Shown: piece by piece, positions 1 to 6,703 of the stretch
Numbering within the stretch: the stretch's first letter is position 1
Layout of the letters: every line of letters begins with the position of its first letter
From: a virus
Taxonomy: Duplodnaviria; Heunggongvirae; Uroviricota; Caudoviricetes
IMG/VR virus record: IMGVR_UViG_2534682252_000011
Strand: one strand, 5' to 3'
Length of the DNA: 6,703 nucleotides
Notes under the pieces: model-generated
What the model was told of the DNA's origin: nothing
What the model saw: only the letters and a program-made list of their open reading frames with translations
Database searches by the model: none
Made by a program: the position numbers and the translations under genes

Positions 1-159
1 TGATTATGGCATTCAGGCTCTGCTAAAAATGCCAGATAACATTCCGGCCTCCCCTGATTCAGGTTATAAATGACACAATATCTTGACAACACCCGTCACT
101 GTCTGTCAGAAAATATACCGCCAGGCATAAGTATCATGTGAAATCCAACTATCCTTCTG

Positions 160-202
160 AGCCAGCACCTCTCCACCGAAAGTCAGTGCTGGCTGTTTTT
201 TT
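160..202 (+). terminator. Putative intrinsic terminator: 8-9 bp stem (161-168 gccagcac / 186-193 gtgctggc), 17-nt loop, followed by gttttttt
   Basis: Perfect inverted repeat read directly from the sequence, followed by a run of 7 T (196-202). It lies in the flank I do not recognise as lambda. The loop is large for a canonical terminator. Confidence 0.4.
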
Positions 203-429
203 CCTTAATAAAGCATCTGTAACTGGTTGTTGTTCTGCGGGTTCTGTTCTTCGTTGACATGAGGTTGCCCCGTATTCAGTGTCGCTGATTTGTATTGTCT
301 GAAGTTGTTTTTACGTTAAGTTGATGCAGATCAATTAATACGATACCTGCGTCATAATTAATTATTTGACGTGGTTTGATGGCGTAGATGCACGTTGTGA
401 CATGTAGATGATAATTATTATCATTTTGC

Positions 430-436
430 GGGTCCT
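430..436. other. cosQ: cosQ-like element (gggtcct) about 24-30 bp upstream of the cosN nick
   Basis: Position relative to the genome right end (459) matches where I recall lambda cosQ to lie. The exact cosQ boundaries are from memory. Confidence 0.4.
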
Positions 437-459
437 TTCCGGCGATCCGACAGGTTACG

Positions 460-471
460 GGGCGGCGACCT
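460..471. other. cosN: cosN: 12-nt cohesive-end sequence gggcggcgacct; right genome end ...cgatccgacaggttacg ends at 459
   Basis: Exact match to the canonical lambda cohesive end GGGCGGCGACCT, preceded by the canonical right-end sequence. Nu1 starts about 190 bp downstream, as in lambda. Confidence 0.85.
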
Positions 472-504
472 CGCGGTTTTTCACTATTTATGAAAATTTT
501 CCGG

Positions 505-625
505 TTTAAGGCGTTTCCGTTCTTCTTCGCCGTAACCTAATGTTTTTATTTAAAACACCCCCTGAAAAGAAAGGAAACGACAGGTGCTGAAAACGGGCTT
601 TTTGGCCTCTGTCGTTTCCTTTCTC
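505..625. promoter_or_regulatory. cosB: cosB: terminase small-subunit binding region with R3 (cgtttcc 512-518), an A/T-rich tract at the expected IHF site I1 (536-558), R2 (ggaaacg 573-579, inverted) and R1 (cgtttcc 613-619)
   Basis: Three copies of the cgtttcc / ggaaacg core in the R3-I1-R2-R1 order and orientation known for lambda, between cosN and the Nu1 start. I could not identify a clean IHF consensus by eye. Confidence 0.65.
568..624. repeat. 16-bp perfect inverted repeat (568-583 / 609-624) with a 25-bp spacer; the arms correspond to R2 and R1
   Basis: 568-583 agaaaggaaacgacag is the exact reverse complement of 609-624 ctgtcgtttcctttct. Confidence 0.8.
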
Positions 626-648
626 TGTTTTTGTCCGTGGAATGAACA

Positions 649-1194
649 ATGGAAGTCAACAAAAAGCAGCTGGCTGACATTTTCGGCGCGAGTATCCGTA
701 CCATTCAGAACTGGCAGGAGCAGGGAATGCCCGTTCTGCGGGGTGGTGGCAAGGGTAATGAGGTACTTTATGACTCTGCCGCCGCCATAAAATGGTATGC
801 CGAAAGGGATGCTGAAATTGAGAACGAAAAGCTGCGCCGGGAAGTTGAAGAACTGAGGCAGGACAGCGAGACAGATCTCCAGCCAGGGACTATTGAGTAC
901 GAACGCCATCGACTTACGCGTGCGCAGGCCGACGCACAGGAACTGAAGAATGCCAGAGACTCAGCTGAAGTGGTGGAAACCGCATTCTGTACTTTCGTGC
1001 TGTCGCGGATCGCAGGTGAAATTGCCAGTATTCTCGACGGGATCCCCCTGTCGGTGCAGCGGCGTTTTCCGGAACTGGAAAACCGACATGTTGATTTCCT
1101 GAAACGGGATATCATCAAAGCCATGAACAAAGCAGCCGCGCTGGATGAACTGATACCGGGGTTGCTGAGTGAATATATCGAACAGTCAGGTTAA
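649..1194 (+). CDS. Nu1: Terminase small subunit gpNu1 (181 aa), intact
   Basis: 181-aa ORF beginning MEVNKKQLADIFGASIRTIQNWQEQGMPV, an N-terminal helix-turn-helix, with the LRGGGKGNEV segment. Near-identical to lambda gpNu1 as recalled. Sits immediately downstream of cosB and overlaps the A start by 26 nt. Confidence 0.95.
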   Translation: MEVNKKQLADIFGASIRTIQNWQEQGMPVLRGGGKGNEVLYDSAAAIKWYAERDAEIENEKLRREVEELRQDSETDLQPGTIEYERHRLTRAQADAQELKNARDSAEVVETAFCTFVLSRIAGEIASILDGIPLSVQRRFPELENRHVDFLKRDIIKAMNKAAALDELIPGLLSEYIEQSG

Positions 1195-2896
1195 CAGGCT
1201 GCGGCATTTTGTCCGCGCCGGGCTTCGCTCACTGTTCAGGCCGGAGCCACAGACCGCCGTTGAATGGGCGGATGCCAGTTACTATCTCCCGAAAGAATCC
1301 GCATACCAGGAAGGGCGCTGGGAAACACTGCCCTTTCAGCGGGCCATCATGAATGCGATGGGCAGTGACTACATCCGCGAGGTGAATGTGGTGAAGTCTG
1401 CCCGTGTTGGTTATTCCAAAATGCTGCTGGGTGTTTATGCCTACTTCATAGAGCATAAGCAGCGCAACACCCTTATCTGGTTGCCGACGGATGGTGATGC
1501 CGAGAACTTTATGAAAACCCACGTTGAGCCGACTATTCGTGATATTCCGTCGCTGCTGGCGCTGGCCCCGTGGTATGGCAAAAAGCACCGGGATAACACG
1601 CTCACCATGAAGCGTTTCACCAATGGGCGTGGCTTCTGGTGCCTGGGCGGTAAAGCGGCAAAAAACTACCGTGAAAAGTCAGTGGATGTGGCGGGTTATG
1701 ATGAACTTGCTGCCTTTGATGAGGATATTGAACAGGAAGGCTCTCCGACGTTCCTGGGCGATAAGCGTATTGAAGGCTCGGTCTGGCCAAAGTCCATCCG
1801 TGGCTCCACGCCCAAAGTGAGAGGCACCTGCCAGATTGAGCGTGCAGCCAGTGAATCCCCGCATTTTATGCGTTTTCATGTTGCCTGCCCGCACTGCGGG
1901 GAGGAGCAGTACCTTAAATTTGGCGACAAAGAGACGCCGTTTGGCCTCAAATGGACGCCGGATGATCCCTCCAGCGTGTTTTATCTCTGCGAGCATAATG
2001 CCTGCGTCATCCGTCAGCAGGAGCTGGACTTTACTGATGCCCGTTATATCTGCGAAAAGACCGGGATCTGGACCCGTGATGGCATTCTCTGGTTTTCGTC
2101 ATCCGGTGAAGAGATTGAACCGCCTGACAGTGTGACCTTTCACATCTGGACGGCGTACAGCCCGTTCACCACCTGGGTTCAGATTGTCAAAGACTGGATG
2201 AAGACGAAAGGGGATACGGGAAAACGTAAAACCTTCGTGAACACCACGCTCGGTGAGACATGGGAAGCGAAGATCGGCGAACGTCCGGATGCTGAAGTGA
2301 TGGCAGAGCGGAAAGAGCATTATTCAGCGTCCGTTCCTGACCGTGTGGCTTACCTGACCGCCGGTATCGACTCCCAGCTGGATCGCTACGAAATGCGCGT
2401 ATGGGGATGGGGGCCGGGTGAGGAAAGCTGGCTGATTGATCGGCAGATTATTATGGGCCGCCACGACGATGAACAGACGCTGCTGCGTGTGGATGAGGCC
2501 ATCAATAAAACCTATACCCGCCGGAATGGTGCAGAAATGTCGGTATCCCGTATCTGCTGGGATACTGGCGGGATTGACCCGACTATTGTGTATGAACGCT
2601 CGAAAAAGCATGGGCTGTTCCGGGTGATCCCCATTAAAGGGGCATCCGTCTACGGAAAGCCGGTGGCCAGCATGCCACGTAAGCGAAACAAAAACGGGGT
2701 TTACCTTACCGAAATCGGTACGGATACCGCGAAAGAGCAGATTTATAACCGCTTCACACTGACGCCGGAAGGGGATGAACCGCTTCCCGGTGCCGTTCAC
2801 TTCCCGAATAACCCGGATATTTTTGATCTGACCGAAGCGCAGCAACTGACTGCTGAAGAGCAGGTCGAAAAATGGGTGGATGGCAGGAAAAAATAA
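1169..2896 (+). CDS. A: Terminase large subunit gpA, reading frame ends prematurely (575 codons, where lambda gpA has 641 as I recall)
   Basis: GTG start at 1169 giving MNISNSQVNRLRHFVRAGL...; contains VVKSARVGYSK. Roughly 99% identical to recalled lambda gpA until ...EKWVDGRKK, then TAA at 2894-2896. Confidence 0.9.
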   Translation: MNISNSQVNRLRHFVRAGLRSLFRPEPQTAVEWADASYYLPKESAYQEGRWETLPFQRAIMNAMGSDYIREVNVVKSARVGYSKMLLGVYAYFIEHKQRNTLIWLPTDGDAENFMKTHVEPTIRDIPSLLALAPWYGKKHRDNTLTMKRFTNGRGFWCLGGKAAKNYREKSVDVAGYDELAAFDEDIEQEGSPTFLGDKRIEGSVWPKSIRGSTPKVRGTCQIERAASESPHFMRFHVACPHCGEEQYLKFGDKETPFGLKWTPDDPSSVFYLCEHNACVIRQQELDFTDARYICEKTGIWTRDGILWFSSSGEEIEPPDSVTFHIWTAYSPFTTWVQIVKDWMKTKGDTGKRKTFVNTTLGETWEAKIGERPDAEVMAERKEHYSASVPDRVAYLTAGIDSQLDRYEMRVWGWGPGEESWLIDRQIIMGRHDDEQTLLRVDEAINKTYTRRNGAEMSVSRICWDTGGIDPTIVYERSKKHGLFRVIPIKGASVYGKPVASMPRKRNKNGVYLTEIGTDTAKEQIYNRFTLTPEGDEPLPGAVHFPNNPDIFDLTEAQQLTAEEQVEKWVDGRKK

Positions 2897-3095
2897 CTGT
2901 GGGACAGCAAAAAGACGACGCAATGAGGCGCTCGACTGCTTCGTTTATGCGCTGGCGGCGCTGCGCATCAGTATTTCCCGCTGGCAGCTGGATCTCAGTG
3001 CACTGCTGGCGAGCCTGCAGGAAGAGGATGGTGCAGCAACCAACAAGAAAACACTGGCAGAATACGCCCGTGCCTTATCCGGAGAGGATGAATGA
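2897..3095 (+). pseudogene. A: Displaced 3' end of A: LWDSKK still in the A frame (2897-2914), then [59 protein letters not shown] in the +1 frame, ending in the ATGA overlap with W
   Basis: Frame-0 ORF 2880..3095 encodes the expected gpA C-terminus and ends exactly at the W start (atg 3092-3094 / tga 3093-3095). Recovering the ancestral protein needs both readthrough of TAA 2894-2896 and a +1 shift near 2915. Confidence 0.7.
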
Positions 3096-4900
3096 CGCGA
3101 CAGGAAGAACTTGCCGCTGCCCGTGCGGCACTGCATGTACCTGATGTACAGGAAAACGGGTGGCAACGGTTACAGAAAGACGGACGGCGAGTGGAGTTTA
3201 CGACCACTTCCGTGTCTGACCTGAAAAAATACATTGCTGAGCTGGAAGTGCAGACCGGCATGACACAGCGACGCAGGGACCTGCAGGATTTTATGTATGA
3301 AAATCGTCCACCATTCCCACCCTTCGTGGGGCCGGACGGCATGACATCGCTGCGTGAATATGCCGGTTATCACGGCGGTGGCAGCGGATTTGGTGGGCAG
3401 TTGCGGGCGTGGAACCCACCGGGTGAAAGTGTGGATGCAGCCCTGCTGCCCAACTTTACCCGTGGCAATGCCCGCGCAGACGATCTGGTACGCAATAACG
3501 GCTATGCCGCCAACGCCATCCAGCTGCATCAGGATCATATCGTCGGGTCTTTTTTCCGGCTCAGTCATCGCCCAAGCTGGCGCTATCTGGGCATCGGGGA
3601 GGAAGAAGCCCGTGCCTTTTCCCGCGAGGTTGAAGCGGCATGGAAAGAGTTTGCCGAAGATGACTGTTGCTGCATTGACGTTGAGCGAAAACGCACGTTT
3701 ACCATGATGATTCGGGAAGGTGTGGCCATGCACGCCTTTAACGGTGAACTGTTCGTTCAGGCCACCTGGGATACCCGTCCCTCGCGACTGTTCCGGACAC
3801 AGTTCCGGATGGTCAGCCCGAAGCGCATCAGCAACCCGAACAATACCAGCGACAGCCGGAACTGCCGTGCCGGTGTGCAGATTAATGACAGCGGTGCGGC
3901 GCTGGGATATTACGTCAGCGAGGACGGGTATCCTGGCTGGATGCCGCAGAAATGGACATGGATACCCCGCGAGTTACCCGGCGGGCGCGCTTCGTTCATT
4001 CACGTCTTTGAACCCGTGGAGGACGGGCAGACCCGCGGTGCAAATGTGTTTTACAGCGTGATGGAGCAGATGAAGATGCTCGACACGCTGCAGAACACGC
4101 AGCTGCAGAGCGCCATTGTGAAGGCGATGTATGCCGCCACCATTGAGAGTGAGCTGGATACGCAGTCAGCGATGGATTTTATTCTGGGCGCGAACAGTCA
4201 GGAGCAGCGGGAAAGGCTGACCGGCTGGATTGGTGAAATTGCCGCGTATTACGCCGCAGCACCGGTCCGTCTGGGAGGCGCAAGAGTGCCGCACCTGATG
4301 CCGGGGGACTCACTGAACCTGCAGACGGCTCAGGACACGGATAACGGCTACTCCGTGTTTGAGCAGTCACTGCTGCGGTATATCGCTGCCGGGCTGGGTG
4401 TCTCGTATGAGCAGCTTTCCCGGAATTACGCCCAGATGAGCTACTCCACGGCACGGGCCAGTGCGAACGAGTCGTGGGCGTACTTTATGGGGCGGCGAAA
4501 ATTCGTCGCATCCCGTCAGGCGAGCCAGATGTTTCTGTGCTGGCTGGAAGAGGCCATCGTTCGCCGCGTGGTGACGTTACCTTCAAAAGCGCGCTTCAGC
4601 TTTCAGGAAGCCCGCAGTGCCTGGGGGAACTGCGACTGGATAGGCTCCGGTCGTATGGCCATCGATGGTCTGAAAGAAGTTCAGGAAGCGGTGATGCTGA
4701 TAGAAGCCGGACTGAGCACCTACGAGAAAGAGTGCGCGAAACGCGGTGACGACTATCAGGAAATTTTTGCCCAGCAGGTCCGTGAAACGATGGAGCGCCG
4801 CGCAGCTGGTCTTAAACCGCCCGCCTGGGCGGCTGCGGCATTTGAATCCGGGCTGCGACAATCAACAGAGGAGGAGAAGAGTGACAGCAGAGCTGCGTAA
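3092..4900 (+). CDS. B: Fused reading frame: head-tail joining protein gpW N-terminus (about 62 aa, no stop) continuous with portal protein gpB; an intact portal could also start at the internal ATG 3293
   Basis: 602-aa ORF starts [15 protein letters not shown]... (gpW), has the SD ggagagg at 3081-3087, and continues without a stop into [23 protein letters not shown]...[10 protein letters not shown] (gpB). The lambda-position W stop tga (3298-3300) and B start atg (3297-3299) are both out of frame here. In-frame ATG at 3293 with agga at 3285-3288 would give a 535-aa portal. Confidence 0.85.
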
Positions 4901-6202
4901 TCTCCCGCATATTGCCAGCATGGCTTTTAATGAGCCGCTGATGCTTGAACCCGCCTATGCGCGGGTTTTCTTTTGTGCGCTTGCAGGCCAGCTTGGGATC
5001 AGCCGCCTGACGGATGCAGTATCCGGCGACAGCCTGACTGCCGGAGAGGCACCCGCGGCGCTGGCGTTATCCGGTGATGATGACGGACCACGACAGGCCC
5101 GGAGTTATCAGGTCATGAACGGCATCGCCGTGCTGCCGGTGTCCGGTACGCTGGTCAGCCGGACGCGGGCGCTGCAGCCGTATTCGGGAATGACCGGTTA
5201 CAACGGCATTATCGCCCGTCTGCAACAGGCTGCCAGCGATCCGATGGTGGACGGCATTCTGCTCGATATGGACACACCGGGCGGGATGGTGGCGGGAGCA
5301 TTTGACTGTGCTGACATCATCGCCCCGTGTGCGAGACATAAAAACCGGTATGGGCGCTGGCCAACGACATGAACTGCAGTGCAGGTCAGCTGCTTGCCAG
5401 CGCCGCCTCCCGGCGTCTGGTCACGCAGACCGCCCGGACAGGCTCCATCGGCGTCATGATGGCTCACAGTAATTACGGTGCTGCCCTGGAGAAACAGGGC
5501 GTGGAAATCACGCTGATTTACAGCGGCAGCCATAAGGTGGATGGCAACCCCTACAGCCATCTACCGGGTGATGTCCGGGAAACACTGCAGTCCCGGATGG
5601 ATGCAACCCGCCGGATGTTTGCGCAGAAGGTGTCGGCATATACCGGCCTGTCCGTGCAGGCTGTGCTGGATACCGAGGCTGCAGTGTACAGCGGTCAGGA
5701 GGCCATTGATGCCGGACTGGCTGATGAACTTGTCAACAGCACCGATGCGATCACCGTTATGCGTGATGCACTGGATGCACGTAAATCCCGTCTCTCAGGA
5801 GGGCGAATGACCAAAGAGACTCAATCAACAACTGTTTCAGCCACTGCTTCGCAGGCTGACGTTACTGGCGTGGTGCCAGCGACGGAGGGCGAAAACGCCA
5901 GCGCGGCGCAGCCGGACGTGAACGCGCAGATCACCGCTGCGGTTGCGGCAGAAAACAGCCGCATTATGGGGATCCTCAACTGTGAGGAGGCTCACGGACG
6001 CGAAGAACAGGCCCGCGTGCTGGCAGAAACCCCCGGTATGACCGTGGAAACGGCCCGCCGCATTCTGGCCGCAGCACCACAGAGTGCACAGGCGCGCAGT
6101 GATACTGCGCTGGATCGTCTGATGCAGGGGGCACCGGCACCGCTGGCTGCAGGTAACCCGGCATCTGATGCCGTTAACGATTTGCTGAACACACCAGTGT
6201 AA
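4881..6202 (+). pseudogene. C: Capsid assembly protease gpC (S49/ClpP-like), split by a net +2 frameshift at about 5323-5344 into ORF pieces 4881..5372 and 5369..6202
   Basis: GTG start 4881 with strong SD gaggagga (4869-4876) and a 20-nt overlap with the B stop, as in lambda. Frame 0 reads ...GAFDCADIIAPCARHKNRYGRWPTT then stops; the gpC continuation PVWALANDMNCSAGQLLASAASRR... is in frame 2. The ORF-track start at 4746 is inside B and is not the real start. Confidence 0.8.
5597..6202 (+). CDS. Nu3: Scaffolding protein gpNu3 (201 aa), nested in-frame in the 3' part of C, intact
   Basis: Internal ATG at 5597 (MDATRRMFAQKVSAYTGL...) sharing the C stop at 6200-6202. Length and position match lambda Nu3. 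It lies downstream of the C frameshift, so it is unaffected. Confidence 0.75.
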   Translation: MDATRRMFAQKVSAYTGLSVQAVLDTEAAVYSGQEAIDAGLADELVNSTDAITVMRDALDARKSRLSGGRMTKETQSTTVSATASQADVTGVVPATEGENASAAQPDVNAQITAAVAAENSRIMGILNCEEAHGREEQARVLAETPGMTVETARRILAAAPQSAQARSDTALDRLMQGAPAPLAAGNPASDAVNDLLNTPV

Positions 6203-6211
6203 GGGATGTTT

Positions 6212-6544
6212 ATGACGAGCAAAGAAACCTTTACCCATTACCAGCCGCTGGGCAACAGTGACCCGGCTCATACCGCAACCGCGCCCGGCGGATTGAGTGC
6301 GAAAGCGCCTGCAATGACCCCGCTGATGCTGGACACCTCCAGCCGTAAGCTGGTTGCGTGGGATGGCACCACCGACGGTGCTGCCGTTGGCATTCTTGCG
6401 GTTGCTGCTGACCAGACCAGCACCACGCTGACGTTCTACAAGTCCGGCACGTTCCGTTATGAGGATGTGCTCTGGCCGGAGGCTGCCAGCGACGAGACGA
6501 AAAAACGGACCGCGTTTGCCGGAACGGCAATCAGCATCGTTTAA
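6212..6544 (+). CDS. D: Head decoration protein gpD (110 aa), intact
   Basis: [27 protein letters not shown]...AISIV, near-identical to recalled lambda gpD. aaggga SD at 6201-6206; starts 9 nt after the C stop, as in lambda. The ORF-track start at 6206 (MFM...) is probably not used. Confidence 0.95.
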
Positions 6545-6561
6545 CCTGACCCTTCATCACT

Positions 6562-6587
6562 AAAGGCCGCCTGTGCGGCTTTTTTTA
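6562..6587 (+). terminator. D-E intergenic hairpin (stem 6566-6570 gccgc / 6575-6579 gcggc, loop ctgt) followed by a run of 7 T; putative attenuator or RNA-stability element
   Basis: Inverted repeat plus T-run read directly from the sequence. Its function is not known to me, and full termination here would be odd because E is needed in amounts similar to D. Confidence 0.3.
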
Positions 6588-6599
6588 CGGGATTTTTTT

Positions 6600-6703
6600 A
6601 TGTCGATGTACACAACCGCCCAACTGCTGGCGGCAAATGAGCAGAAATTTAAGTTTGATCCGCTGTTTCTGCGTCTCTTTTTCCGTGAGAGCTATCCCTT
6701 CAC
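6600..6703 (+). CDS. E: Major capsid protein gpE, 5' partial (first 35 codons; runs off the window end)
   Basis: ATG at 6600 giving MSMYTTAQLLAANEQKFKFDPLFLRLFFRESYPF, matching the lambda gpE N-terminus as recalled. Confidence 0.9.
   Translation, partial: MSMYTTAQLLAANEQKFKFDPLFLRLFFRESYPF

Follow-up and report, generated by a model that had tools for sequence, protein, structure and literature searches.

Among the closest known counterparts of the site analyzed here is the cos of phage lambda (NC_001416 / J02459), which consists of cosQ, cosN, I2, and cosB. The cosQ element is 7 bp long and has a role in packaging termination, and cosB extends over approximately 120 bp with the subsites R3-I1-R2-R1 (PMC4669245). 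In cosN, 12 bp are flanked by 2 bp on each side, and 10 of these 16 positions are symmetric; R3 occupies bp 50-65, Nu1 starts at bp 191, and the spacing from cosN to R3 is critical (PMC9026076). The intervening I2 (bp 18-50) is functionally important in lambda, and in vivo it is required at a stage later than cleavage (PMC4856287). Both cosQ and cosN are shared between lambda and phage 21 (PMC4669245). Among resident prophages, Sp8 of Escherichia coli O157:H7 Sakai has intact terminase and morphogenesis genes and no cI/cro, and no circularisation, replication, or packaging of it was seen (PMC2669165).

We analyzed a stretch of 6,703 nucleotides, hereafter the window, which was identical to the entire 6,703-bp contig AMTQ01000039.1 of assembly GCA_000302735.1, an O157-type draft genome of Escherichia coli PA7. 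The contig was located by looking up the truncated 575-aa gpA as an exact protein, and its proteins carry the name of E. coli PA7. The closest complete relative was prophage Sp8 of E. coli O157:H7 Sakai (99.8% identity over 225-6703), which we take to be the same element as CP-933X of EDL933. As judged from sequence, and with high confidence, the locus is a canonical lambda-type cos (cosQ-cosN-I2-cosB, the latter with R3-I1-R2-R1) of an Sp8-type lambdoid prophage, situated on a short draft contig in which the gene lesions are likely errors and the left flank may be one too. The flanks and subsites of this cos are given below in window coordinates.

1-224, plus strand: left flank, without homology to lambda or Sp8; identical to the sequence preceding cos in an Sp4-type O157 prophage
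225-459, plus strand: homologue of the lambda right end, from alignment; ends at the expected top-strand nick between 459 and 460
430-436, plus strand: cosQ (GGGTCCT), packaging-termination element; 7/7 versus lambda, at the same spacing from cosN
437-457: spacer between cosQ and cosN, 21 bp, length as in lambda; one substitution (443 T>C)
458-473: cosN, the 12-bp cohesive-end sequence plus 2 bp on each side; 16/16 versus lambda, 10/16 positions two-fold symmetric
460-471, plus strand: 12-nt cohesive end GGGCGGCGACCT; lambda bp 1-12, 12/12
477-509, plus strand: I2, bent AT-rich segment separating cosN from cosB; equivalent to lambda bp 18-50, with 477 G>T and 483 G>A, length unchanged
509-524, plus strand: R3, binding site of TerS (Nu1); lambda bp 50-65, 16/16
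525-567: interval between R3 and R2, place of the IHF site I1 in lambda; five substitutions versus lambda
568-583, minus strand: R2, TerS binding site, inverted; 16/16 versus lambda
584-608: spacer between R2 and R1; one substitution and a 1-bp deletion versus lambda
609-624, plus strand: R1, TerS binding site; 16/16 versus lambda
649: ATG of Nu1, unchanged versus lambda

In lambda, cosQ is reported to lie at 48473-48479 (Wieczorek & Feiss 2001). Comparison with lambda was made by global alignment of window 1-1160 against a construct in which the lambda right end (NC_001416 48043-48502) was joined to the left end (1-700). Window positions 225-459 corresponded to lambda 48268-48502, and from position 460 the window was nearly identical to lambda from bp 1 onward, through Nu1. 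The initial annotation had proposed that the right genome end is joined directly to the 12-nt cohesive end and followed by cosB and Nu1, and its coordinates proved exact: the right-end sequence ...cgatccgacaggttacg ends at 459, gggcggcgacct occupies 460-471, and the region upstream of Nu1 follows. The accompanying claim that cosQ, cosN, R3, R2, and R1 are intact was likewise borne out, with 7/7, 16/16, 16/16, 16/16, and 16/16 positions identical to lambda, respectively. No element with a known terminase contact differs from lambda, and the differences are confined to spacers. The distance from cosN to R3 was preserved, with no insertion or deletion relative to lambda within 460-524. Two IHF-consensus-like cores in the R3-R2 interval, at 538-550 and 533-545 (minus strand), scored equally in the window and in lambda, and they are candidates for I1.

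The pattern cosQ-N21-cosN was present at one place in the window and absent from all 200 dinucleotide-preserving shuffles, which argues that the resemblance reflects homology rather than chance. A de novo search for direct and inverted repeats also picked out the R sequences, with R2 inverted. No family was returned when the window was scanned with Rfam, and a promoter and terminator scan of 1-700 revealed nothing beyond chance except for hairpins belonging to cosN and to the R2-R1 palindrome. In that palindrome, R2 and R1 (568-624) form the arms of a 26-nt imperfect palindrome with 85% complementarity and a 5-nt gap, in which a GGGC/GCCT hairpin is nested.

From the contiguity of the two genome ends it had been proposed that the DNA derives from a prophage, a circle, or a concatemer. 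This holds, and the prophage is favoured: the window is a contig of a bacterial draft genome, and the 99.8%-identical Sp8 is integrated adjacent to icd. A prophage map is permuted around attP, so that the right and left ends of the virion genome are joined at cos, between lysis/bor and Nu1. In Sakai, Sp8 is integrated with int-xis adjoining icd and its cos is internal, the gene order being int, xis, replication genes, Q, holin S, endolysin R, Rz/Rz1, bor, cos, Nu1, A, W, B, C, D, E ... J, lom, stf, tfa. The late-gene order in the window is Nu1-A-W-B-C-D, and lysis genes upstream of cos are seen in the relatives only. Textbook maps of integrated lambdoid prophages show just this, cos in one piece with the lysis region on one side and Nu1 on the other, and the feature is as such already known. 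An integrated prophage is thus the best supported reading, with integration itself inferred from the relatives, as the window contains no int, att, or host flank.

The missing host flank would also suit a circular replicative form or a concatemer of an induced phage, in which cos is contiguous too. We consider this origin very unlikely, however, because the source is a bacterial whole-genome draft, near-identical copies reside in chromosomes, and neither circularisation nor replication of Sp8, which has no cI/cro, was observed in Sakai (PMC2669165). A still smaller probability, close to nil, is assigned to the junction being an assembler's circularisation of a linear virion genome or the cos of a PICI that hijacks the terminase of a helper. 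PICIs do carry a lambda-like cosQ and cosN (PMC9026076); otherwise we found no specific support for either. The first scenario, an artificial circularisation with a terminal duplication, had been named at the outset as the one that would overturn the junction, and it was excluded: the contig is 6.7 kb long, shows no prefix-suffix overlap or terminal duplication, and contains a single copy of the cohesive-end 12-mer. The PICI reading was rejected on the presence of lambda-identical R3, R2, and R1 followed by Nu1-A-W-B-C-D rather than rpp (PMC9026076).

For the cos of an integrated Sp8-type prophage, a packaging mechanism can be proposed by applying steps established for lambda (PMC4669245, PMC4856287, PMC9026076). 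With the DNA bent at I1 by IHF, Nu1 dimers would occupy R3 and R2 on either side of the bend, and R1 would serve as an accessory site. Nu1 on cosB would anchor gpA, leading to nicks 12 bp apart at cosN, which are expected between 459 and 460 on the top strand and between 471 and 472 on the bottom strand. Terminase would remain on the cosB end and dock on the portal, and the DNA would be translocated and packaged rightward from that end. At the next cos, the terminating cut would be directed by cosQ, cosN, and I2. On this analogy the cos in the window may be functional in packaging. Two observations count against its use: the I2 double substitution was seen in no isolated phage of the collection, and Sp8 in Sakai showed no circularisation, replication, or packaging (PMC2669165).

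The part of the window to the left of cos has a different affiliation from the part to the right. Positions 1-476 were identical to the locus of an Sp4-type prophage, including 328A, 360A, cosQ, and cosN, and that locus diverged completely after 504. The Sp4 type was assigned from its ISEc8-disrupted nu1 (nu1::ISEc8) and its 21-type cosB (PMC2669165). From 477 onward the alleles of the window are those of Sp8 (477T and 483A). Every Sp8-type locus examined had 328G and 360G and another sequence upstream of 225, where Sp8 is lambda-like. The haplotype switch therefore lies within 361-476, a stretch of 116 bp that is identical in both parents and holds cosQ and cosN. Window 1-700 was found in one piece in none of 5,426 complete E. 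coli genomes, and a 136-nt pattern combining the Sp4-type left with the Sp8-type right side of the junction was absent from GTDB representatives, IMG/VR, and JGI metagenomes.

These data raise the possibility that the contig is partly chimeric, with an Sp4/Sp14-type left part (1 to ~476) joined to an Sp8-type right part through the near-identical cos region, so that the haplotype as written does not exist in the strain. We regard this as a substantial possibility, somewhat short of an even chance. It would account for the Sp4-type identity through 328A and 360A to 476 followed by 477T and 483A, for the lack of 1-700 in the complete genomes and of the junction in the three large collections, and it agrees with the many private indels on the same contig. 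On the other hand, natural recombination between O157 lambdoid prophages uses shared segments of this kind (PMC2669165), and in many phages cos lies between mosaic boundaries; a rare true recombinant would look alike. Both parents have a contiguous cos, and the cos finding is therefore unaffected by whether the contig is a chimera or a recombinant. There is only a very slight chance that the switch is real and arose by annealing and ligation of identical cohesive ends, namely the right end of an Sp4/Sp14-type element and the left end of an Sp8-type element; if true, the joining of cohesive ends would generate lambdoid mosaicism precisely at cosN.

Mosaic boundaries were seen on both sides of cos: homology to lambda and Sp8 starts at 224/225, homology to an Stx1a phage starts at 408/409, and the prophage with the 21-type cosB diverges at 504/505. 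Lambda/Sp8, the Stx1a phage, and the 21-type-cosB prophage have only ~409-504 in common, a segment with cosQ, cosN, and the greater part of I2. The Sp4-type flank also contains a strong terminator-like hairpin, GCCAGCAC...GTGCTGGC, at 162-194 with seven consecutive T behind it (-16.3 kcal/mol for segment 155-210); the simple terminator scan missed this 162-203 element because of its long loop. In the Sp4-type prophage from which the left flank of the window would come (NZ_CP030767.1 845583-870086), the holin, lysozyme, and lysis protein genes at locus positions 9674-11904 are annotated on the strand opposite to the terminase genes, with IS1203 and ISEc8 near them, which suggests an inversion or rearrangement upstream of cos in that prophage.

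Downstream of cos, the initial annotation had described the terminase and head genes as damaged as written. This was confirmed in the deposited sequence: a stop and a frameshift interrupt A, shifted frames fuse W with B, and C is in two pieces. The genes are as follows.

649-1194, plus strand: Nu1, terminase small subunit, 181 aa; intact, Pfam PF07471
1169-3095, plus strand: A, terminase large subunit; disrupted by TAA at 2894-2896 (AT>TA) after codon 575, and +A at 2915 shifts the last 66 codons
3092-3300, plus strand: W, head-tail joining protein; scrambled by an inserted T at each of 3138, 3147, and 3170 and by a G missing after 3275
3297-4900, plus strand: B, portal protein; 5' end shifted by +C at 3305 and +G at 3326
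4881-6202, plus strand: C/Nu3, prohead protease and scaffold; inserted C (5323) and A (5340) split the gene
6212-6544, plus strand: D, head decoration protein; intact

As written, W and B read as one fused ORF of 602 aa (3092-4900). Nu1 was identical to the Nu1 of Sp8 and differed from that of lambda by four substitutions (V46A, A72D, A75T, and L132I), and residues 1-45, which hold its DNA-binding region, were the same as in lambda.

Relative to Sp8, the lesions comprised the AT>TA change at 2894-2895, 10 single-base indels, and one substitution at 4284. The indels listed individually are insertions at 2915, 3138, 3147, 3170, 3305, 3326, 5323, and 5340 and a 1-base deletion after 3275. All of these changes, that at 2894-2895, the 10 indels, and the substitution at 4284, were private to the window and absent from Sp8, an Stx1 phage, and lambda, and the window agreed with Sp8 at every other discriminating site. 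Eight of the indels fell within 2915-3326 and two within the 18 bp of 5323-5340, mostly outside homopolymers. Ten indels stood against only ~4 substitutions relative to the 99.8%-identical Sp8. Among ~15 billion proteins the frameshift peptides were found on this contig alone, and a 48-nt pattern spanning two private lesions had no match in IMG/VR, GTDB representative genomes, or JGI metagenomes. The substitution at 4284, a private A>G in the portal gene, is the sole private lesion outside both indel clusters.

Five other draft assemblies break at the equivalent of window positions 2893-2895, which is where the damage starts. We considered whether these breaks reflect a second, truncated copy starting at ~2894; this was rejected, as O157 genomes contained two full-length copies of a 601-bp stretch across ~2894. 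We attribute the fragmentation of contigs near 2894 to this two-copy repeat in general. A blend of the Sp8 and Stx1-prophage copies was also rejected as the origin of the indels, since the window follows Sp8 at all discriminating SNPs and the indels occur in neither copy.

The absence of the lesions from relatives, the excess and clustering of indels, the restriction of the peptides to one contig, and the breaks of other drafts at the same place lead us to regard sequencing or assembly error as the probable source of the stop in A and of the frameshifts in A, W, B, and C. If they were real, this would be a decaying prophage in which the terminase large subunit, W, portal, and protease are dead and cos and Nu1 persist as intact orphans. 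The lesions are present in the deposited sequence, and lambdoid prophages made defective by frameshifts are common in O157 (PMC2669165). We nevertheless consider real decay improbable: ten indels against ~4 substitutions, in tight clusters mostly outside homopolymers, fit a base-calling or consensus error better than mutation, and no other sequence had the lesions, whose start coincides with the break point of other assemblies.

An intact cos next to dead terminase and head genes is thus most likely the product of an error-laden, possibly chimeric repeat contig of a 2012-era draft, and not biology. The practical value of the analysis is caution about this draft contig, and its additions are the identification of the source contig and a warning on the gene damage and the left flank. 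The significance of the site itself is small, as a lambda-type cos occurs in ~83% of complete E. coli genomes: a 90-bp query from cosN to R3 (440-529) matched 4,510 of 5,426. The matches were chromosomal at 8,460 of 8,494 places and on plasmids at 34, and 465 complete E. coli records, which share the I2 variant (477T, 483A), matched at ≥99%. In the record of phage DE3, the homologous stretch is annotated as 'cos site'.

The cos of PICIs has a lambda-like cosQ and cosN without the lambda R sites and is followed by rpp, whereas the window has R sites and Nu1 (PMC9026076). The simple cos of N15 combines a lambda-like cosQ and cosN with a single R site, in contrast to the complex tripartite cosB and Nu1 of the window (PMC4669245). 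Sp4/Sp14-type O157 prophages have the same cosQ and cosN as the window, but a phage-21-like cosB and a different terminase. Lambda has the same cosQ, cosN, R3, R2, and R1 as the window, with equal distances from cosQ to cosN and from cosN to R3, and its downstream genes follow in the same order. Differences from the lambda cos are confined to spacers and amount to 10 substitutions plus a deletion of 1 bp (443; 477 and 483; the I1 interval; R2-R1), and lambda virion records have the two cos halves at opposite ends, which in the window are joined. Several of these differences recur in other phages. The 443C allele and the 1-bp deletion between R2 and R1 are common to the viable phages 2H10, Kati, PhiR63_1, and the Stx1a-converting Stx1_9793, and all changes on the cosB side from 485 on also occur in Stx1 phages in the alignment. 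Unlike the window, 2H10, Kati, PhiR63_1, and Stx1a-converting phages retain the G of lambda at I2 positions 477 and 483; the double variant 477T/483A was found in no isolated phage of the collection, where the best full-length match to 440-529 was 97.8%. There is also a slight possibility that this Sp8-specific I2 variant alters packaging. It is widespread in O157, and the cos of Sp8 in O157:H7 Sakai carries it together with the same Nu1, being identical to the window over 380-660.
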